A stretch of DNA of 64,000 nucleotides from an uncultured Actinomycetota bacterium. GTDB lineage: Bacteria; Actinomycetota; Geothermincolia; Geothermincolales; RBG-13-55-18. Shown piece by piece: positions 9,427-64,000 of the stretch (positions are counted from its first letter, which is position 1; each line of letters opens with the position of its first letter). Position numbers and translations under genes: made by a program. The notes beneath the pieces are model-generated. The model ran no database searches, had not been told where the DNA came from, and was given only the letters and a program-made list of their open reading frames with translations. Location: assembly GCA_964462595.1 (NCBI GenBank), contig CAYWXM010000023.1, positions 71,543-135,542 of the forward strand, given 5' to 3'.

Positions 9427-10133
9427 CTGACGGCAGCCAAAAGCACCATCCCGGCCGTCTCTGTTCTCAACACGTTGTATCCCAGGGTAACGGGTTTTGC
9501 TCCCATGCCTGAAAGCAGTTCCCTCTCCTCGCTCGTGAATCCTCCCTCCGGGCCTATGACCAGCGCCAGGTCGCTCGGCCTCTTTGCTCCCAGTGCCTCT
9601 GCGGTCTTCGCCCCACCTTCCTCATCGGCAAATAACGAGGTTTCGAACCCCTTGAGCAGCTGCAGCGCATCTTCCCAGACGGCGACATCATCGATACGGG
9701 GAAGGAAAGGCCTTCCAGCGATACGGGCTGTTTCCAGCGCTATCCTGCGCCACCTATCCATGCGCCCGTTCAAGGATCCGTGCGGCCTGGAGGCACGCGC
9801 GCTTAAAAAGGGCTTCACGGAAGATGCCCCCAATTCCACGCTTAACTGCACGACGATATCCATCTTCGTGCCGCCTGGAAGGGCTTGAAAGATATGCATG
9901 CGTGGGCTCTCGTCCTCTATCATGATCCTGTCGTCCACGGCAACCGTTGTGTGGGTTGGAGTTATACCCATGATGGTGCCGCGTCCGGCAAGTCCCCTGC
10001 CGTCCAGCAGTATGACGCCCTCTCCGACCCGCATCCTGAGCACTCTGCTGGCGTGATGGTGATCTCCGCCCTCCAAGGTCAGGCGTTCCGCCCTTAGATC
10101 CTGCGTGGAAACATAGAACCTGGAAGTGGTCAA
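9405..10133 (-). CDS. rsmE: 16S rRNA (uracil1498-N3)-methyltransferase RsmE
   Basis: 242-aa ORF with the RsmE PUA-like N-terminus and SPOUT C-terminus (LVIGPEGGFT). It overlaps dnaJ by 4 nt. Confidence 0.85.
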   Translation of the reverse strand: MTTSRFYVSTQDLRAERLTLEGGDHHHASRVLRMRVGEGVILLDGRGLAGRGTIMGITPTHTTVAVDDRIMIEDESPRMHIFQALPGGTKMDIVVQLSVELGASSVKPFLSARASRPHGSLNGRMDRWRRIALETARIAGRPFLPRIDDVAVWEDALQLLKGFETSLFADEEGGAKTAEALGAKRPSDLALVIGPEGGFTSEERELLSGMGAKPVTLGYNVLRTETAGMVLLAAVRCHYGLL

Positions 10134-11239
10134 TAATCCTGCCCCATCGCCTTGCGCAGGCGGCTCATGATACCGTGCTTTTCCATTTTCTCGTCCTCCA
10201 TAAGCTTGAATTCATGCAGAAGTATTTTCTGCTCGGCGCTGAGTTTTTTCGGCACCTTCACCTCGAGCGTGAGGTACAGATCGCCCAGGGAGCGAGAACG
10301 TACGCTGGGCATACCTTTTCCACGTAATTTGAAAACCTCTCCCGGCTGGCTCCCCGCCGGGATCTGTAGCTTCTCCTGACCATTCAAGGTGGTCACGTCG
10401 ATATCGGTCCCCAGGGCAGCCTCGGACATGTCTATACTCACCATGGCGTGGAGGTCGCTACCGTGACGCGTAAATATATCGTGTTCGCTTATCCTGACCT
10501 CCACGTAGAGGTCTCCTGGCGGGCCTCCCCTCAGGCCGGCTTCCCCGCGGCCGTTCATCCTTATGCGATCCCCGTTGTCGACCCCTGCGGGCATGTTGAC
10601 CTCGAACCGGTCTACTATCTGCTTCGCTCCTTCTCCGCCGCATGAAGGGCAGGGATGTGTGTTTATCTCTCCAGTCCCACCGCAACGGCTGCAGACGGTA
10701 GTCGAAGTGAAGGTGCCGAGAGCGCTGCGGCGCGTATGTACCGTCTTTCCCTCTCCCCCGCACTGGGGGCAGATGTCATGGCTGTAGCCCTTCGCCAGTC
10801 CTGTCCCTCCGCACTCTTCGCATCTTTCGGTTCTGGGCAGTTCTATCTCCCGCAACGTACCCGTATATGCTTCCGAGAGCGTCAACGTAACCACCGTCAA
10901 GAGGTCGCTTCCCCGTTGTGGGGAGTAGTCTGCCCTGCCAGGTCCGCGTCCGAAAAACATGTTGAAGATATCGCCTATGGGCCCGCCGAATACATCGAAG
11001 CCGCTACCCGCAGCAGCAGGAGAGCTGCCCTCCTCGCCGAAAAGATCGTACCTTCTTTTTCTTTCCGGGTTGCTAAGCACCTCGTAGGCCTCGTTTATCT
11101 CTTTGAAGAAATCTCCCCCGTCACCGCCTCCCTGACTGACATCGGGGTGGTGGCGTCGTGCCATGCTGCGGTAAGCTCTTTTTATCTCCTCCTGGTCGGC
11201 ACTGCGTGTAATTCCTAGAATATCGTAATAATCCTTCAT
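10130..11239 (-). CDS. dnaJ: molecular chaperone DnaJ
   Basis: 369-aa ORF with a J domain containing HPD (DYYDILGI...HPDV), a G/F-rich linker, four CxxCxGxG zinc-finger repeats and the C-terminal substrate domain. Confidence 0.95.
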   Translation of the reverse strand: MKDYYDILGITRSADQEEIKRAYRSMARRHHPDVSQGGGDGGDFFKEINEAYEVLSNPERKRRYDLFGEEGSSPAAAGSGFDVFGGPIGDIFNMFFGRGPGRADYSPQRGSDLLTVVTLTLSEAYTGTLREIELPRTERCEECGGTGLAKGYSHDICPQCGGEGKTVHTRRSALGTFTSTTVCSRCGGTGEINTHPCPSCGGEGAKQIVDRFEVNMPAGVDNGDRIRMNGRGEAGLRGGPPGDLYVEVRISEHDIFTRHGSDLHAMVSIDMSEAALGTDIDVTTLNGQEKLQIPAGSQPGEVFKLRGKGMPSVRSRSLGDLYLTLEVKVPKKLSAEQKILLHEFKLMEDEKMEKHGIMSRLRKAMGQDY

Positions 11240-11260: not shown

Positions 11261-12289
11261 TTAGCCCCTGAGCATCTCTAAAGTACGGCTGAGCGATTTG
11301 GCGATGAAATCCACTGTAGGTATCACGCGGGCATAGTCCATGCGTGTCGATCCCAGCACGCTCACCGTTCCGACCATCTCCTCGCCGATGGCGTACGGTG
11401 TAGCCACCAGGCTGAAAGATTGCAGTTCCTTGTAAAGGTTCTCATCTCCTATGCGCACCAGAAGCTCCTTTGAACCGAGTGCCTCGCTGAGCATGTTGAG
11501 CAGGAAGTACTGTTCCTCGAAATGCTCGAGCAGGTTCTCGATACGCTTCAGGCCCTCTCCGTCCAGATAGCGCAGCAGGTTGACAGTCCCACCCACGAAA
11601 ACCTTTTCGTACTCTTCCTCTGAGAGGATATCTCTTATCACGGATATCACCCTCGCGGTCAGGGAGGGCGATCTCAGCCTGCTTATATCGCCTTGCAGGG
11701 TCAGCTCGGCCATCTTTTCCAGCCCCCTTCCCTGTAGTTTGTGATTCAGGAAGGACTGGATCTCCTCTAGATCGATGGCCTCGTTCGAATCCCTGATATC
11801 TATCAGTTTTTTCTCCACGCGGCCCGTGTCCGTGATGATTACCAGGAGGACTACATCCTCCGCGAGATTAACCAGGTCGACGTGCTTGATGGAGTTGCGG
11901 CGCAGGCGTGGCGCTATGACCATGGCCGCAGCGCTGGTAAGACGCGAAAGCAGGGTGCTCGTCTCCTGCAGCAGGTTCTCGAGCTCCTTAGTCTTATGGG
12001 AGAAGAGGGTTATAATAGAGTTCCTTTCATCCTCGCGCAGGCGTGTCCGCCCACTCAGGCTGTCCACGTAGAACCTGTAGCCGAGGTCGGTAGGCACCCT
12101 TCCCGCAGAGGTATGGGGCTGGTAGAGGTATCCCAACCCCTCAAGCTTGCTCAGCTCGTTGCGTATGGTTGCTGCACTTACGCCCAGGTTAAGACCCTGT
12201 GCGAGGGATTTTGAACCGACCGGAATCCCGGTAGTTATATACCTGCATACTACCGCCTTCAGTATTTTCTGTTGTCTTTTATCTATCAT
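11261..12289 (-). CDS. hrcA: heat-inducible transcription repressor HrcA
   Basis: 342-aa ORF with an N-terminal winged helix (QQKILKAVVCRYITTGIPVGSKSL), full-length HrcA architecture, and a CIRCE operator immediately upstream. Confidence 0.95.
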   Translation of the reverse strand: MIDKRQQKILKAVVCRYITTGIPVGSKSLAQGLNLGVSAATIRNELSKLEGLGYLYQPHTSAGRVPTDLGYRFYVDSLSGRTRLREDERNSIITLFSHKTKELENLLQETSTLLSRLTSAAAMVIAPRLRRNSIKHVDLVNLAEDVVLLVIITDTGRVEKKLIDIRDSNEAIDLEEIQSFLNHKLQGRGLEKMAELTLQGDISRLRSPSLTARVISVIRDILSEEEYEKVFVGGTVNLLRYLDGEGLKRIENLLEHFEEQYFLLNMLSEALGSKELLVRIGDENLYKELQSFSLVATPYAIGEEMVGTVSVLGSTRMDYARVIPTVDFIAKSLSRTLEMLRG

Positions 12290-12316
12290 TTAGCACTCTC
12301 CTCCTTAGAGTGCTAC
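12290..12316 (-). promoter_or_regulatory. CIRCE operator (HrcA binding site), TTAGCACTC-N9-GAGTGCTAc
   Basis: The plus strand reads ttagcactc-tcctcctta-gagtgcta, a perfect 9-bp inverted repeat with a 9-nt spacer that directly abuts the hrcA ATG at 12287-12289. On the coding strand the spacer reads TAAGGAGGA, which is the Shine-Dalgarno. Confidence 0.85.
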
Positions 12317-12325
12317 CCCAATATT

Positions 12326-12355
12326 AAAGTATCGGTTCTCGCCGCCATGCGTCAA
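12326..12355 (-). promoter_or_regulatory. putative sigma-A-type promoter for hrcA-dnaJ (TTGACG-N18-TACTTT)
   Basis: The reverse strand reads cTTGACGcatggcggcgagaaccgaTACTTTaatatt just upstream of CIRCE. The assignment is by eye only. Confidence 0.3.
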
Positions 12356-13461
12356 GCGGGAAGGAGCTCCAATATCACCGTATTCGAAACAAGCATGCCA
12401 CGTCCGGTGAGGCGGATGCGTCCCGTATCCCTGTGCAGCAGGCCAAGGTCCTCGAGCTCATAAAGCCGGTCTCCGTGGACGTCGAGCATGCTGTCCGGCA
12501 CGCCAAGGACGGTCCTCAAGCCCAGCATTATCCTTTCCTTGCGTTCTTCCGCTTTGCCTATATACTCGCATCCCTCGATGGCGGATATGCCCCGCGTAAT
12601 CCTGCGCATGTAATCTAAGAGGGAAAGCACGTTATTGAAGCGGCAACCCCCGACGAAAGAGTAGGCGCCGGCCCCCACGCCCAGGTACTCTTCGCGTTCC
12701 CAGTAAGCCAGGTTGTGGCGGCTGCGATGTCCGGGAAGGCAGAAGTTGGATATCTCGTAATGCTCGTAGCCTGCTTCCCGCAGTTCTTCGCAGGCCGCCA
12801 GGTACTGTTCCGCCGCTTCGTCCTCGTCTGGAAGCGCGAGTTCCCCCCTCTGGATGGCTCTTGACATCCGTGACCTTCCCGACAGGGTAAGCGCGTAAAG
12901 GCTTATGTGATGGACACCTGCTCCTATGACCTTGCGCAGCCCCTGCAACAGCGTTTCCTTATCCATACCCGGCAATCCGAACATCAGGTCCACGGACACG
13001 GATAAAACACCGCTTCCAAGCGCATCCTTTATGGCCATCATGGCTTTCGCGGCATCGTGCAACCTTCCCAGTCTTACCAGCGAGGGATCGTGCAGCGACT
13101 GCACGCCCACACTTATGCGATTGACGCCTCCCGTCCGAGCGGCTGCGTAATCCCCGGCTTTCCAGGTGGCCGGGTTTACCTCCACGGTGGTCTCTGCATC
13201 GTCGCTCAAGCCAAACCGGGAACCTATCCCGCCTAAAAGTTCCGATATCTCCACCCCGCTGAGGGTGGAAGGCGTGCCGCCTCCCAGGTAAACGGACCTC
13301 AGCCCTCTCTTTTCTTCGCCCATCAGCTCTGCCCAGGCGGATATCTCCGAAAGAAGGGCGCACATGTACTCGCGCATGCGGCGGCCGTCGCACACCCGCG
13401 AGTTGAAATCGCAATAAGAACAGCGGGAGATGCAGAAAGGCCAGTGAACGTAAAGCCTCAC
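12352..13461 (-). CDS. hemW: radical-SAM heme chaperone HemW (oxygen-independent coproporphyrinogen-III-oxidase-like)
   Basis: It has the CxxxCxxC radical-SAM motif ([12 protein letters not shown]) and the HemW/HemN-like C-terminus. The long ORF extends to 13608 through the lepA 3' end. The likely real start is the GTG at 13459-13461, which overlaps the lepA TGA (a GTGA junction). Confidence 0.85.
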
Positions 13462-15272
13462 TTTCCGCCCTCCTCCCTGGTGACCCTGAGCGCGGATATG
13501 AAGGCTTCCTGGGGAATCTCGACCTTGCCCACCATCTTCATGCGTTTTTTCCCCTCTTTCTGCTTCTGAAGCAGCTTCTTCTTCCTGGTGATGTCGCCGC
13601 CGTAGCATTTGGCCAGCACGTCCTTGCGCTTGGCCTTTATCGTCTCCCGCGCCACCACCCTGCCGCCTATGGCCGCCTGTATCGGTACGTCGAAGAGCTG
13701 CCGGGGGATGAGTTCCCGCAGACGTTGCGTGATACGCCTTCCGTAGTCGTAAGCGCGGCCCCTATCCACTATGGACGAAAAGGCATCTATTGGCTCCCCG
13801 TTGATGAGTATGTCCAGTTTTACCAGGTTACCCGGAAGAAATCCTGCGTGTTCGTAATCCAGGGAAGCATAACCCCTGCTGCGGGATTTCAACTGGTCGT
13901 AGAAATCGACCACGATCTCCGCCAGAGGCAAGCGGCAGCGTATCTCCACCCGGCGCCCGGAGAGGTAGGCCAAGTCATGGAATATCCCCCTCCTCTCCTT
14001 CACCAGCTCGAGCATGACGCCCATGTAGTCCGGAGGGACCAGTATGGTCGCCTGCACGTACGGCTCGCGCATCTCGCTCAAGGTGGCCGCGTCGGGCATA
14101 TCCGAGGGGTTACGCACGTAGGTTACCGTTCCTTCCCTCTCCTCGACCTCATATACGACGTTGGGGGCGGTTATGACCAGGTCGAGGCCGTATTCCCTCT
14201 CCAGCCTCTCCTGCACTATCTCCATGTGCAGCAGACCGAGAAACCCGCAGCGGTACCCGAAACCCAGCGCCTTGGAGGTCTCCTTGGCGAAGGTGAGGGC
14301 GGCTTCGTTAAGCTTCAATCTTTCCAGGGCGTCGCCCAAGTCGGTGAAATCGTCCGAATCCACCGGGTATATTCCGGCGAACACCATAGGTTTGGGCTCG
14401 AGATATCCGGGCAGCGGCCCGGAAGCGGGGTTATCCCTGCCGGTCACCGTGTCCCCGACCTTGATCCTGGTGACGTCCTTGATGCCGGTGATGATGTAAC
14501 CGACCTCCCCCGCCTCCAGGATGCCGGTGGAGATCATGTCTGGTGAGAAGTACCCCACCTCGTCTATCTCCACCGCCTTCCCCTCCACCATGAAACGGGC
14601 TTTCATGCCCTTGCGGACCACGCCCTCTGCCACGCGCACGAAGGCCACCACGCCGCGGTAGAGGTCGTAGGTGGAGTCGAAGACCAGCGCGCGCAGCGGC
14701 AGCCCGGTCTCAGCCGGGGGCGGCGGCACGCGCCCGATTATCTCCCCCAGCAACTCCTCCACGCCCTCCCCCGTCTTGGCCGATACCGCCATGACCTCCG
14801 CCGGGTCTATGCCGAGCAGGTCAGCCACCTCCATGGCGCTGTCCTCGAAGTCCGCGCTGGGGAGATCTATCTTGTTGACCACCGGGATCACGGTGAGCCC
14901 GGCCTCCACGGCCAGGTAGGCATTGCCGACGGTCTGGGCCTCCACGCCCTGCGACGCGTCCACCAGCAGCACGGCTCCCTCGCAGGCGGCCAGGCTGCGC
15001 GAGACCTCGTAGGAAAAGTCCACATGGCCCGGCGTGTCGATGAGGTTGAGCTGGAATTCTTCCTCTCCCGCGGGCGCATACCGCATGCGCACCGCCTGGG
15101 CCTTGATGGTGATGCCTCGCTCGCGCTCGAGATCCATACGGTCCAGGTACTGGTCCGCCATCTTCTGGTGCGGCACCGTCTGCGTTATCTCGAGGAACCT
15201 GTCAGCCAGCGTGGACTTGCCGTGGTCTATATGCGCGATGATGCAGAAATTGCGTATTCTCTTTTCCTCCAT
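13458..15272 (-). CDS. lepA: translation elongation factor 4 (LepA)
   Basis: 604-aa ORF with the GTPase G1 motif AHIDHGKST and a full-length LepA-specific C-terminal domain. Confidence 0.95.
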
Positions 15273-58498: not shown

Positions 58499-58573
58499 TG
58501 GTGGGCGCGGAGGGGATTGAACCCACGGCCTCTTCCGCGTCAAGGAAGCGCTCTCCCTCTGAGCTACGCGCCC
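58499..58573 (-). tRNA. tRNA-Val (anticodon GAC)
   Basis: The reverse strand reads GGGCGCGTAGCTCAGAGGGAGAGCGCTTCCTTGACGCGGAAGAGGCCGTGGGTTCAATCCCCTCCGCGCCCACCA. It forms a cloverleaf with a 7-bp acceptor stem, anticodon loop TTGACGC and encoded CCA. There is one U-U mismatch in the T-stem. Confidence 0.8.
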
Positions 58574-59739: not shown

Positions 59740-59813
59740 TGGAGGCGGCGACCGGATTTGAACCGGTGATCAAGGTTTTGCAGACCTTTGCCTTACCACT
59801 TGGCCACGCCGCC
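59740..59813 (-). tRNA. tRNA-Cys (anticodon GCA)
   Basis: The reverse strand reads GGCGGCGTGGCCAAGTGGTAAGGCAAAGGTCTGCAAAACCTTGATCACCGGTTCAAATCCGGTCGCCGCCTCCA, with a 3-bp D-stem and U73 discriminator typical of tRNA-Cys. CCA is encoded. Confidence 0.9.
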
Positions 59814-59924: not shown

Positions 59925-60146
59925 TCCGAAACTGCGTGCATACTGTGTTTCGCCATGTTTCGCGATTTCCGCCATAACCTGCATAAAAACAATTTCCGCT
60001 CTTTCTATTTTTAACCACGTTTCGCGTTGTTTTGCAACGACCTGCTAGATATTCGCTAGAAAGAACTCACATATTTATTATTGATAGTGAGCCATAAATT
60101 TAACTAGGACGAAACGGAACTATGACAACCCCGGAAGACAGAGATA

Positions 60147-60959
60147 TTAAAGACTGCCCCAATTATGGTTTTCTTCGTCCCACTTGAGTCGCTCCTCTGG
60201 CCGTTCAACTGCCTCCAGTAGCCTATCAAGTGCTTGCTTTAGTACGTCTGGATCGGAGCTACATATCTGTAATCTTTTCGCTATCGACCCATCAGTGTCT
60301 CTAAATATTCGGAAGTCAATCTGTGTAGGCTCCGGAATCTTAGATATTTCTTTATTAGCGTTCTTACGATGCTTCAATAGAAGCAATATGCTGGCCCATA
60401 AAGCGTTAGCAATGACAGCAATTCCAATGCTCAATGCAATATTGGTGAAATCCACAATGATGCGACATGCAGGAACTGCGGCGAACTGATAAAGTCGCTG
60501 GATTCTAACTGGACCTAAACTAGTGAGTTTGCTTGCCGCCTTTTCAAGAATATCATCACTGAAATAAGCAGCGTCTGCAGCAATACTAAGGAAAGTACCG
60601 CTTCGCTTGGGGTCGATCGCATCAAGTTCTGCGATTGTCTCGCCGCACGTGAAGGAAATACCACCGGGTGCATTTATACTTGCCCAATCAGCTTCAATGG
60701 CACCCCAATCTGTTACATCGACTTCGAACTCTGCCTCAACGGCCTTTGTACCGCCAGGTAGTTCAATGACATCTGCACTGAGGCACTGAGCTTCCCACCG
60801 CTGCATGGGATCGTGATTGTTTACAAGAGGAATCAAATTCCCCTTGAGCTGTTCGACAAGCTGCCCTAGTACTTTTTCGGACAATCTAATGCCGCCATAT
60901 GCTTTAATTGGTCTATTTGTGGCAACCAAGATCTTGAGCGTCTTACGTTCCCCGTGCAT
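60147..60959 (-). CDS. hypothetical protein with a single C-terminal-proximal transmembrane helix (island cargo)
   Basis: 270-aa ORF with an N-terminal soluble domain of about 175 aa and a hydrophobic segment IIVDFTNIALSIGIAVIANALWASILLLL, followed by a tail of about 70 aa. It is lower in GC than the host genes. I recognised no family. Confidence 0.5.
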   Translation of the reverse strand: MHGERKTLKILVATNRPIKAYGGIRLSEKVLGQLVEQLKGNLIPLVNNHDPMQRWEAQCLSADVIELPGGTKAVEAEFEVDVTDWGAIEADWASINAPGGISFTCGETIAELDAIDPKRSGTFLSIAADAAYFSDDILEKAASKLTSLGPVRIQRLYQFAAVPACRIIVDFTNIALSIGIAVIANALWASILLLLKHRKNANKEISKIPEPTQIDFRIFRDTDGSIAKRLQICSSDPDVLKQALDRLLEAVERPEERLKWDEENHNWGSL

Positions 60960-61173
60960 CGTTTGCTCCCTACAAAGTTCGCCATTCCTACATGGCCTAT
61001 CTTATGTTACGCTTCGAGTTTCCTCAACATTAGTCATTCCGTCTTCTCCATACAAAGCGCCCTCAAGCCTGGAAACCGCTTGCTTCGCCTACCCCTCGAA
61101 GAGATTGCCGTAAACGTCCCAGGTCATCTTCGCGGAGGCGTGGCCCACCAAGGCCTGTATGGTCTTCACGTTC

Positions 61174-62499
61174 TCACCCTGGCTGATCAACATGCTGATG
61201 TAGCTCGATAGTATCTGATTTCATTGAAGAACCGGGATTCATCCCTGCTAAAACGCTAGCTACTCTTTGCGCTCCGCCAGAAGTTCTCCACTCGACCGCT
61301 TCTGGTATTTCGTTAAATTCAAGTAGCTGCTGCCCCCCTATTTCTTCAATCGCTTTTCGGACTTCTGAAGGTGTCGCGTAGAAATACTCCCTTCTCATAT
61401 TGACCAGGTTCAGCCGCCGGTCTGCGAAATACTTGTGTAGTTGGTTTTCAAGACCCACAGCATCATCGGAGAAAATGAGCGCATGAACATCGAAGTTGAA
61501 TGGTACACTCGCGTCCCCAAGCTCTCGCACCCGATCCATCGGCTCTAGCCTCCTGGTAAGGCCGATTTTTATAACATGTTCTCCAAAACTTCCGAAGTTT
61601 GATATTACGTATACGTATCCTGCCCTGATGTTGGCCTCTCGGTTTTCGATGCCTTCAATCGCCGCGCGGATTTCTGCCAACATAGATTCCATGTCTGCGG
61701 CCCCCTGTTCATCGCCCTTTTCACGGAGCTTTTCAAGGGTCGTCTGATAGTGAGACTGCTCCTTCTCCAACCGTCGCTTCTCCGCCTCTAATTCCCTTAT
61801 AGCTTTCTCTTCTTCTCTTTGGCGTGCTCGTTCTTCCTTTAATCGCTCCTTTTCTTCCTCAACCTTGTAGAGATAGTCTGAAGTAAGCTCTATCTCGTAT
61901 TTTCTCCAGCGATGATATTCGTCAGTAATACGCAGTTCTATCATCTTCCCAAGCTTGGCGATTGATTCGCGAGCCTTTTCCAGCCGTGAAATGGAAGATG
62001 CAAGCGTGTGAGGCTTGAGAGTTCTTACGATATTATCTGCCTCGGAATTATAAGCTCTTAGCATTAGCTTAGATAGATCATTTACGAACTTCTGGCCTTG
62101 TTTAGCAGAATTATTAAACGTGAAGTTCTTTATCGATGAAACAGCTCTACCTGATTTGACAAGTGCCTTTAAGTTGTCTTTGGTCTCAGCGAGTTTTCCC
62201 TTATAGGCTACTGCATCATCTAAAGGGTGCCTGTACTGGTATATACCGACTCCCTGCAAGATAGCCATCTCATCTGTCTCAACAATCTTGGCCTGGGCTT
62301 CCCTGACCTCTCGTTGCGCCTGGGTCAGTTGCGCCTGGGCGGTAGCCACCTGTTGCTCGGTCGCTGCAAGATTGGTGCGCATCGCCTCGACTTGCCGAGC
62401 AACCTCTACGGCTTCTACCCCCTTAAGGTACTCGACCCACTGTTTAAGATTGGCGTTCTCTGCCTCCAACTCTTCAAGCTTCTTTTTTCCAAAAACCAT
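61174..62499 (-). CDS. coiled-coil / DUF4041 / T5orf172 (MUG113, GIY-YIG-like) domain protein; putative nuclease (island cargo)
   Basis: 441-aa ORF with an N-terminal coiled coil of about 75 aa, a central region with the DUF4041 pattern and a second charged coiled coil, and a C-terminal region GYVYVISNFGSFGEHVIKIGLTRRLEPMDRVRELGDASVPFNFDVHALIFSDDAVGLENQLHKYFADRRLNLVNMRREYFYA that matches the T5orf172 domain pattern. Confidence 0.7.
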   Translation of the reverse strand: MVFGKKKLEELEAENANLKQWVEYLKGVEAVEVARQVEAMRTNLAATEQQVATAQAQLTQAQREVREAQAKIVETDEMAILQGVGIYQYRHPLDDAVAYKGKLAETKDNLKALVKSGRAVSSIKNFTFNNSAKQGQKFVNDLSKLMLRAYNSEADNIVRTLKPHTLASSISRLEKARESIAKLGKMIELRITDEYHRWRKYEIELTSDYLYKVEEEKERLKEERARQREEEKAIRELEAEKRRLEKEQSHYQTTLEKLREKGDEQGAADMESMLAEIRAAIEGIENREANIRAGYVYVISNFGSFGEHVIKIGLTRRLEPMDRVRELGDASVPFNFDVHALIFSDDAVGLENQLHKYFADRRLNLVNMRREYFYATPSEVRKAIEEIGGQQLLEFNEIPEAVEWRTSGGAQRVASVLAGMNPGSSMKSDTIELHQHVDQPG

Positions 62500-62740
62500 T
62501 GATTGTTCCTTTCTTTTATGTGTTGAATGTAACCCCCATCAACTGTAGCCAAAATCTTTTCTATTACCCCCCTCCAGTACATCATGTCCCAAGGGGGGCC
62601 AAGCTTAAACCTGGCTTCAATACACCCTCAGACTTACTGAGGCAGCCCAAGGCGGACGAACGTGTGAGGGTGACATGGGTATATTTGCTAGATTTCTGGA
62701 ACGTTTAAGGGGCCTCGGTTTCCCGAGACCCCTTCTGACC

Positions 62741-62816
62741 TGGAGCGGAAGACGGGATTCGAACCCGCGACCCTCACCTTGGCAAGGTGATGCTCTACCA
62801 ACTGAGCCACTTCCGC
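62741..62816 (-). tRNA. tRNA-Gly (anticodon GCC)
   Basis: The reverse strand reads GCGGAAGTGGCTCAGTTGGTAGAGCATCACCTTGCCAAGGTGAGGGTCGCGGGTTCGAATCCCGTCTTCCGCTCCA, a canonical cloverleaf with encoded CCA. Confidence 0.9.
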
Positions 62817-62873
62817 CTGCTTCACAACTCAAGATTCTAGCATCGCAAGGCGCGTTGCTCAAGGCTGTTCCCT

Positions 62874-63239
62874 CTACCTCCTGGCCTCTTTCTGCAACAC
62901 CTTGCTCACGATGATCAGCCTGCTCGCCCGGTCCTTGAGGGCTCTTTTGAAGTCTATGACCATCTTTTCGAAATCAGGCTCCGGCTTATACGCGTATATG
63001 GTCTCCGCGCCATCTCCCGCCCTGAACTCGTGAGTCAGTATTCCTTTAGCGGTCATGCGCTCGAGAAAAGGCTCGATATCCGAACCCAACCTCCCGATAC
63101 TCATGGCTATACTCGATGGAGATCCTACGGTATACGGGTTCTCGTGGAAAAAGAGGATCAGGTCCCAGGTTATAAAGGAGTCAACGTACTCCTCGACAAA
63201 ACCGGCTACCTGCTGATCAAGGTTTTCGAAATCCAGCAT
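62874..63239 (-). CDS. hypothetical protein (121 aa)
   Basis: An ORF with host-like composition directly downstream of the KaiC-like gene. No domain recognised. Confidence 0.45.
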   Translation of the reverse strand: MLDFENLDQQVAGFVEEYVDSFITWDLILFFHENPYTVGSPSSIAMSIGRLGSDIEPFLERMTAKGILTHEFRAGDGAETIYAYKPEPDFEKMVIDFKRALKDRASRLIIVSKVLQKEARR

Positions 63240-63266
63240 CGCGGAATCACACCTCGCTTACCTTAA

Positions 63267-64000
63267 TCACTTGAAAAACTCCTCGGCCTTCTTCAAGCGC
63301 CGCGTCACGTAAGGGTTGCCGCTCAATATGCCTTCCCTGCCCTCGAAGGCTGCCTTTACCTCTATGCCCGAGGGGGTTATCAGCATGCGGCGTATGCTTT
63401 TGTCATGGTCGGATGCGCGGTGTTTAAGGACAAACAGGGCGCGCTCGATGCTCGAGCTTATCTCAACATAGCGAAGCTGGATTATGGTGTCCACAATATA
63501 CGACAATCCCGCCTCGGCCACTGACATGTTGCCGGTAATGAAGGCGTCCTCCTGGGTAACGAGCGCCGTGATCTCGTAGCGCAGCAAACCGTTGAGGAAG
63601 GTGTACATTATCTCACGCAGCTGCACCGGTTCCTGGGTTATGCGCTCCAGCTGCGTCATCGAGTCTACGAACACCCTCTTGGCCGAAATCTCCTCTATGG
63701 TACGATCGAAAATGCCTCCAGGCTGCTGTATCTCCCTCAGGAAGACGGCGGGCGTAGTAAATACAGTTCTCAGCTTGTTCTCGCGCTCGTATGCTCGCAG
63801 ATCAAAACCAATCGAGACGGCATCGCGATAGAGCTGCCTCGGAAATTCCTCGAAGGTGATTATCAGTCCCGGCTCGTCATACTCCATGATGCCCCGGGAT
63901 ATGAACTCCATACCGATACAGCTCTTACCTGTTCCAGGCGCGCCCTTGATAACCGCGACAGAATTATATAGCAGGCCTCCCCCCAGCATATCGTCCAGAC
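63267..64000 (-). CDS. KaiC-like RecA-superfamily ATPase; the 5' end of the gene is beyond the window
   Basis: It has Walker A GAPGTGKS preceded by ...DDMLGGGL..., a Walker B-like VFVDSM motif and a KaiC/RadA-like fold. The reading frame stays open to the window edge. Confidence 0.75.
   Translation of the reverse strand, partial: LDDMLGGGLLYNSVAVIKGAPGTGKSCIGMEFISRGIMEYDEPGLIITFEEFPRQLYRDAVSIGFDLRAYERENKLRTVFTTPAVFLREIQQPGGIFDRTIEEISAKRVFVDSMTQLERITQEPVQLREIMYTFLNGLLRYEITALVTQEDAFITGNMSVAEAGLSYIVDTIIQLRYVEISSSIERALFVLKHRASDHDKSIRRMLITPSGIEVKAAFEGREGILSGNPYVTRRLKKAEEFFK

Follow-up and report, generated by a model that had tools for sequence, protein, structure and literature searches.

The locus treated here raises the question of what it means when the operator of a heat-shock repressor lies directly against the start codon of the repressor gene and holds that gene's ribosome-binding site. 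It is found on the minus strand of a 64,000-nucleotide stretch of DNA from an uncultured Actinomycetota bacterium (contig CAYWXM010000023.1, positions 71,543 to 135,542), which at its full length is called the window in what follows; the operator is a CIRCE element (an inverted repeat that controls chaperone expression), and the gene is hrcA, followed by dnaJ. A preliminary description of this DNA had proposed a dual-level autoregulation, in which HrcA binding, or the CIRCE stem-loop in the messenger RNA, occludes the initiation of translation as well as transcription. The repressor role of HrcA at CIRCE elements, and the dependence of this protein on GroES/GroEL, are established knowledge. 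HrcA binds a palindrome in double-stranded DNA and represses chaperone operons as well as its own gene at their housekeeping-sigma promoters, a repression that is relieved by stress (PMC13435591, PMC12597100). In our view, the locus is probably an autoregulatory module of the hrcA-dnaJ operon in which promoter, operator and ribosome-binding site have been compressed into the 62-bp intergenic gap between hemW and hrcA; it is a rare, clade-specific compaction of the well-known HrcA regulation and not a new system.

The CIRCE element, the promoter and the start of hrcA

On the minus strand, positions 12316-12290 read G-TAGCACTC-TAAGGAGGA-GAGTGCTAA, and the ATG of hrcA follows directly at 12289-12287; in its wider context the segment reads ...TTGACGcatggcggcgagaaccgaTACTTTaatattgggG-TAGCACTC-TAAGGAGGA-GAGTGCTAA-ATGATAGATAAA. 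When compared with TTAGCACTC-N9-GAGTGCTAA, the site shows a single mismatch and agrees at 17 of the 18 specified bases (26 of the 27 pattern positions); the lone deviating base is the outermost one on the promoter side, a G in place of a T. The element had been called a perfect CIRCE, which is slightly overstated with respect to the consensus but holds for the core palindrome TAGCACTCT/AGAGTGCTA, a perfect one of 9 bp whose arms are separated by 7 nt. The CIRCE arms themselves are spaced by exactly the 9 nt typical of this inverted repeat, and 12290-12316 is the sole match with three or fewer mismatches in the window. None of 100 dinucleotide-preserving shuffles gave a CIRCE match, and none is expected by chance. 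Furthermore, a full-length cognate repressor is encoded in the same genome: the hrcA product scores 337.6 bits with the TIGR00331 equivalog profile, whose cut-off is 197.2, profile position 1 falls on residue 3, and the homologues, which measure 340-345 amino acids, align with 100% coverage.

The hrcA upstream regions of 13 loci, spanning 43-100% HrcA identity, were compared. Their invariant columns are the GCACTC and GAGTGC cores of the operator, a TTGAC, and the T, A and final T of a TAnnnT hexamer 17-19 nt downstream of it. It might still be argued that the repeat is a chance palindrome or a relic and not an HrcA operator, and that hrcA is expressed by read-through from lepA-hemW; a scan detected no intrinsic terminator between hemW and hrcA, and read-through transcripts probably exist. 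We consider this reading scarcely credible in view of the shuffling result, the constancy of the arms over the whole range of HrcA identity while the flanks diverge, and the cognate repressor encoded immediately downstream. The site clearly belongs to the CIRCE/HrcA family and, judged by its sequence, is real and conserved; the claim that a genuine CIRCE stands in front of hrcA is upheld.

The start of hrcA is unambiguous, since the last three bases of the operator form an in-frame TAA directly before the ATG, which blocks any start further upstream, and the next in-frame ATG, GTG or TTG is codon 52, whose use would cost HrcA its N-terminal part. The Shine-Dalgarno (SD) core AAGGAGG (12306-12300), positioned 10 nt before this ATG, is the sole purine-rich tract within its reach. 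Other GGAGG sites ahead of long open reading frames in the window stand mostly 8-10 nt before the start codon, so that the spacing is normal for this genome. The preliminary description was hence right in placing the start codon against the operator and the only SD in its 9-nt spacer, and the alternative in-frame start that it had named as a possible objection was looked for and is absent before codon 52.

The invariant TTGAC-TAnnnT footprint, which lies 9 nt upstream of the operator, corresponds in the window to TTGACG-N18-TACTTT. Its -10 element occurs as TACTTT, TAACGT, TACCTT, TAAGTT, TAATCT, TAACTT, TAAGGT, TAATTT or TACCGT in the aligned loci, and the 9 nt between this hexamer and CIRCE differ in almost every sequence compared. 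The conservation of TTGAC is not just a coding constraint imposed by hemW, because it is retained in one relative (L136) in which hemW ends 109 nt upstream of hrcA. The promoter had previously been placed inside the 3' end of hemW; the promoter itself is borne out by this conservation, while its location has to be corrected, since only the -35 hexamer overlaps hemW, at the stop codon. GATACT, which a consensus scan had picked as the -10 hexamer (TTGACG-N16-GATACT), was discarded, as it is not conserved and the TACTTT at N18 is. The transcription start is predicted near 12319, 2-3 nt before CIRCE.

A different design is seen in two other loci, clpB in a Patescibacteria metagenome-assembled genome (MAG; L030) and groEL in an uncultured Actinomycetota MAG (L125), where TTGACA or TTGAGT is followed by N18, TAGAGT, 6-7 nt and the ATG, and where the CIRCE spacer lacks an SD. 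If the window were so built, the operator would overlap the -10 element, the first transcribed base would be the A of the start codon, and the spacer's GGAGG would not serve as an SD; leaderless mRNAs are common in Actinomycetota. However, the equivalent hexamer in the window is GAGAGT, which lacks the first T and has no -35 element 17-19 nt upstream, so that no -10 element ending about 6-8 nt before an SD-less start is found there. Moreover, all 13 loci share an invariant, independent promoter sequence ahead of CIRCE, and a 7-nt perfect complement of the anti-SD is conserved in a spacer that is otherwise free to vary. We regard a leaderless hrcA transcript as very improbable.

For the compressed promoter-operator-SD module that we favour, the following course of events can be envisaged. 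The housekeeping-type promoter would start transcription just ahead of CIRCE, and HrcA, kept active by GroES/GroEL, would bind the DNA palindrome at about +3 to +29 and thereby block RNA polymerase; protein-folding stress would inactivate HrcA and release transcription. The motif, the cognate repressor, the conserved adjoining promoter and the conservation of the arms all fit this family role. The SD would have moved into the sequence-free 9-nt spacer of the operator, with the start codon adjoining the operator or, in some relatives, overlapping it by 1 nt, and the resulting 5'-untranslated region (5'-UTR) of about 30 nt would be essentially the operator itself.

Distribution and descent of the arrangement

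Uncultured Actinomycetota MAGs are the source of the closest HrcA proteins; a Candidatus Geothermincolia MAG encodes a more distant HrcA. The layout of the window, written as (G/C)TAGCACTC-(T/A)AAGGAGGA-GAGTGCTAA-ATG, recurs in the metagenomic loci L001-L007 (74-87% HrcA identity) and in L136 (67%), and the spacer (T/A)AAGGAGGA is common to these 8 relatives (67-87% identity). Operator and start codon share 1 base in L001 and L006 (GAGTGCTAATG). The same 1-nt overlap with the ATG is seen in L128 (61% HrcA identity), which reads GTAGCACTC-GAAAGGGGA-GAGTGCTAATG and has GAAAGGGGA as its spacer. Within this clade the spacer is nearly invariant, fixed around AAGGAGG, while the neighbouring bases between the -10 element and CIRCE vary freely; since CIRCE spacers are otherwise unconstrained, as they are in L130, L132 and L133, this near-invariance marks a second function, namely that of an SD.

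More distant relatives carry looser arrangements. CIRCE lies 5 nt from the ATG in L134 and L135 (55% and 54% HrcA identity), with an AGGAG at the junction of spacer and right arm; these two appear to be intermediates, and a second AGGAG/AGGAA stands directly against the ATG. The distance is 9-10 nt in L130 and L132 (56% and 51%), whose spacers hold no SD, and 11 nt in L133 (43%), which has the classical compact form CIRCE-GGAG-N7-ATG. The hrcA upstream regions of L128, L130 and L132-L136 are located at about 1400-1503 in each locus. Neighbour-joining analysis of the HrcA proteins groups the loci with the SD in the spacer as one monophyletic clade. Along this tree the CIRCE-to-ATG distance shortens in steps: it is 13-15 nt in the outgroups, then 11, 9-10 and 5, and finally 0 or -1 nt. 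The SD-in-spacer architecture is unusual and derived and, as far as sampled, is confined to a single clade of uncultured Actinomycetota.

A search of 185,579 species genomes, in which perfect CIRCE arms had to be followed by an ATG within 0-4 nt, provided a background of at least 120 loci, which were used as a quasi-random sample of CIRCE sites and not as a census; all figures that follow refer to the matches listed, among which the lineage of the window is absent. Nearly all of the ATGs at these matches are there by chance and open reading frames of a few codons. Such an ATG is expected at about 1/8 of CIRCE sites (1/16 for ...TAATG plus 4 x 1/64), and the background is therefore roughly 8-fold enriched for genuine abutting starts. 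Where the N-terminus of GroES, HrcA, GroEL, DnaK or DnaJ could be recognized (62 loci), it begins 13-353 nt from CIRCE; among them are 18 hrcA loci, of which one stands apart at 298 nt and the others fall within 13-56 nt. The SD stands downstream of CIRCE in every printed case with a distance below 90 nt, and GGAGG occurs in 0 of 124 background CIRCE spacers in either orientation. Only L030 and L125 have genuine abutting starts, which corresponds to a rough, enrichment-corrected estimate of about 0.2% of canonical CIRCE sites. The remaining long open reading frames at a matched ATG were set aside as artefactual N-terminal extensions (RpoH-like, DtxR-like, GroES) or as antisense frames. Outside the clade of the window, the SD-in-spacer form was not found among the matches listed. 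Likewise, no account of a CIRCE spacer holding an SD was found in open-access full-text literature, which is weak evidence of novelty.

The same background contains canonical CIRCE elements directly upstream of an RpoH-like gene (box QRKLFFNLR) in L061 and L101 (Xenophilus, Variovorax) and in L066 (Rhodanobacteraceae); in these Beta- and Gammaproteobacteria, HrcA would control sigma-32.

The transcribed palindrome and the translation of hrcA

Once transcribed, the palindrome would unavoidably fold as a 5'-proximal 9-bp hairpin that displays the SD, leaves the AUG free and has to be unzipped for initiation. The energy predicted for this hairpin at 37 °C is -12.5 kcal/mol (z = -3.8 relative to shuffles); it weakens to -7.8, -5.3 and -2.75 kcal/mol at 55, 65 and 75 °C, respectively. 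The SD occupies the 7-nt loop, with a predicted probability of being unpaired of 1.00 between 25 and 75 °C; for the AUG this value is about 0.95 (0.93-1.00 over the same range). The only paired part in the prediction is the 10-nt segment between SD and AUG. The stem is fully accounted for by the DNA operator, and the 1 bp that the spacer ends add to it is not conserved, as seen in L002 and L128. A terminator or attenuator was considered and rejected, as the hairpin is followed by AAAUGAUAGAUAAAAG and not by a U-run, and no terminator-like site is listed at 12290-12316; Rfam covariance models applied at the gathering score gave no match near 12.3 kb in the window.

These predictions bear directly on the proposed dual-level switch, in which the RNA stem-loop would act as a regulated translational block, for instance a thermosensor, in addition to HrcA acting on the DNA. 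The complete enclosure of the SD-AUG spacer in a stem that the 30S subunit must unzip is in line with this proposal, as are the short 5'-UTR consisting of a single hairpin, a trait of some RNA thermometers, and the RNA-level effects of CIRCE documented in other bacteria. However, an SD in the loop and a largely free AUG are the opposite of the sequestration on which thermometers depend, and a perfect 9-bp stem with neither mismatch nor bulge would not melt in the physiological range unless the organism is thermophilic. Furthermore, the DNA operator suffices to explain the stem. HrcA is a double-stranded-DNA-binding repressor, and it is not known to bind RNA; a repressor sitting on the DNA cannot block a ribosome on the mRNA. 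The notions that HrcA binding or the stem-loop would occlude initiation thus do not hold in the form in which they were put forward, and we judge a dual-level switch to be unlikely.

A constitutive damping of HrcA translation, brought about because the 30S subunit docks on the loop but must unzip the stem to place the AUG, is a consequence that the compact module would be predicted to have. Some damping of hrcA initiation, and not sequestration, is plausible, and a regulated translational switch is not expected from the folding calculations. The second consequence would be protection of the mRNA 5' end, as a hairpin 2-4 nt from the predicted 5' end is expected to stabilize the transcript. An mRNA-stabilizing effect of CIRCE is reported for Rhodobacter capsulatus, and is discussed for B. 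subtilis and M. tuberculosis (PMC3207917). With no terminator between hemW and hrcA, read-through transcripts would carry the same hairpin, and operator-bound HrcA may also act as a roadblock.

One may go further and suppose that CIRCE has been co-opted in this clade as a bifunctional element, being both a DNA operator and a 5'-terminal, SD-presenting RNA hairpin that serves as a ribosome standby site and ties HrcA synthesis to the opening of the stem by temperature, ribosome availability or an RNA helicase. We offer this as a speculative extension with a low probability. If it were true, a post-transcriptional feed-forward arm would be added to the shut-off of the heat-shock response, and the start codon's step-by-step move towards the operator (14, 11, 9-10, 5, 0 nt) would be adaptive and not mere compaction.

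Several considerations weigh against the promoter-operator-SD module as we have put it. The promoter and the transcription start are deduced from sequence conservation; the hairpin is a folding prediction, and coupled transcription-translation may bear on its formation. The window holds no second CIRCE, and none of groES, groEL, dnaK and clpB is present in its 64 kb. In addition, the background sample was drawn with perfect 8+8 arms and an ATG at 0-4 nt and yields rough frequency estimates, and the neighbour-joining tree carries no support values.

Genomic setting and comparison with known systems

The features discussed here are compiled in Table 1. Between 8119 and 15272, the minus strand carries lepA, hemW, hrcA, dnaJ, rsmE and mtaB, and the same gene order is found in relatives down to 43% HrcA identity wherever the retrieved locus is long enough. 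It resembles that of Bacillus (in B. subtilis lepA-hemN/hemW-hrcA...dnaJ-rsmE-mtaB, the same neighbourhood), except that grpE-dnaK and prmA are missing from the segment between hrcA and dnaJ/rsmE. For hemW, the longest open reading frame opens with ATG 13608, which would imply a 150-nt overlap with lepA (13458-13608, minus strand). The sequence GGGAGGAGG precedes a GTG at 13461 that shares bases with the lepA stop codon (13460-13458). The true start of hemW is probably this GTG, translationally coupled to lepA. Elsewhere in the window, the only Rfam matches are a flavin mononucleotide (FMN) riboswitch (RF00050) and three tRNA genes, and the G+C content is 0.494 in 60001-64000 compared with 0.55-0.60 in the rest.

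Table 1. Positions of the hrcA control region, of its neighbours and of other elements (window numbering unless a locus is named)
Feature	Position	Strand	Remarks
dnaJ, downstream partner of hrcA	10130-11239	minus	TIGR02349, E 2e-117; same neighbour in all relatives
hrcA coding sequence, autoregulated repressor	11261-12289	minus	342 amino acids; TIGR00331, E 1.1e-100
hrcA start codon ATG	12287-12289	minus	adjoins last CIRCE base
CIRCE operator, predicted HrcA binding site	12290-12316	minus	G-TAGCACTC-N9-GAGTGCTAA; consensus match, inverted repeat, conserved cores
Predicted 5'-proximal mRNA hairpin	12291-12315	minus	9-bp stem UAGCACUCU/AGAGUGCUA, loop AAGGAGG; -12.5 kcal/mol
CIRCE spacer TAAGGAGGA	12299-12307	minus	holds hrcA SD; supplies 7-nt loop of predicted hairpin
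Predicted -10 hexamer TACTTT, TAnnnT type	12326-12331	minus	18 nt past -35; T, A and final T invariant in 13 loci
Predicted -35 hexamer TTGACG	12350-12355	minus	overlaps hemW stop TGA (12354-12352); TTGAC invariant in 13 loci
hemW, radical-SAM haem chaperone, upstream gene	12352-13461	minus	TIGR00539, E 4e-79; match from residue 52 of the open reading frame
FMN riboswitch RF00050	31129-31244	minus	115 bits, full-length model match
tRNA-Val (GAC)	58499-58573	minus	
tRNA-Cys (GCA)	59740-59813	minus	
tRNA-Gly (GCC)	62741-62816	minus	
CIRCE adjoining clpB start, Patescibacteria MAG	L030:2295-2324	plus	operator-in-promoter design
CIRCE adjoining groEL start, uncultured Actinomycetota MAG	L125:6394-6425	plus	operator-in-promoter design

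HrcA/CIRCE is among the most widespread heat-shock circuits of bacteria, and the spacer of its operator is normally treated as a functionless N9. The present locus indicates that this spacer can hold a second signal, the ribosome-binding site, and a module of promoter, operator, ribosome-binding site and start codon can therefore fit into about 65 bp, a state that would have been reached stepwise within one lineage. This calls for caution where regulon prediction assumes that an operator precedes the ribosome-binding site, and where start codons are called by searching unstructured sequence for an SD. The locus is also a natural, minimal cassette for heat-inducible expression. Should its hairpin modulate translation, it would illustrate cleanly how a single palindrome can be read in DNA as well as in RNA. 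The HrcA system as such is understood no differently than before.

The closest known counterparts include the CIRCE operators of hrcA-grpE-dnaK-dnaJ and groESL in Bacillus subtilis (Zuber & Schumann 1994, as cited in PMC4245973 and PMC12597100). They share with the window the 9-N9-9 palindrome, a housekeeping-sigma promoter just upstream of the operator, and hrcA as the first gene of an autoregulated operon. In the canonical layout, however, the SD follows CIRCE at the hrcA distances sampled above, whereas in the window it lies in the spacer and the distance is 0; furthermore, grpE-dnaK is absent between hrcA and dnaJ. Within the same phylum, an hrcA-dnaJ2 operon with an upstream CIRCE is known from Mycobacterium (PMC13435591) and has the hrcA-dnaJ pair and the position of the operator in common with the window. 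In the literature searched, neither an SD in the spacer nor an abutting start was found described for this operon type, and the window comes from a deep, uncultured lineage, to which a Candidatus Geothermincolia MAG is related.

The clpB and groEL loci L030 and L125 resemble the window in their extreme compactness, with an operator ending 1-2 nt before a genuine start codon. They differ from it in that CIRCE lies between the -35 and -10 elements, the TAGAGT being formed by the end of the spacer and the right arm, and in that no SD is present. Their mRNAs would have no CIRCE hairpin, whereas the window retains a leader with an SD. The two sites, which are unrelated, look like leaderless operator-in-promoter modules.

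The RNA thermometers of heat-shock genes, such as ROSE, fourU and that of Synechocystis hsp17 (PMC3074152, PMC4152365), likewise have a short 5'-UTR with one hairpin around the ribosome-binding site. In these, the SD and/or the AUG is paired in an imperfect, heat-labile stem, whereas the window is predicted to have both unpaired and a perfect, very stable stem. Lastly, a stabilizing role at the mRNA 5' end has been ascribed to CIRCE in R. capsulatus groESL (Jaeger et al. 2004), and a post-transcriptional one to CIRCE in B. subtilis (Homuth et al. 1999), in work cited by PMC3207917. These elements resemble that of the window in being transcribed as 5'-proximal stem-loops, but their hairpins are separate from the ribosome-binding site, while the predicted hairpin of the window carries it in its loop.

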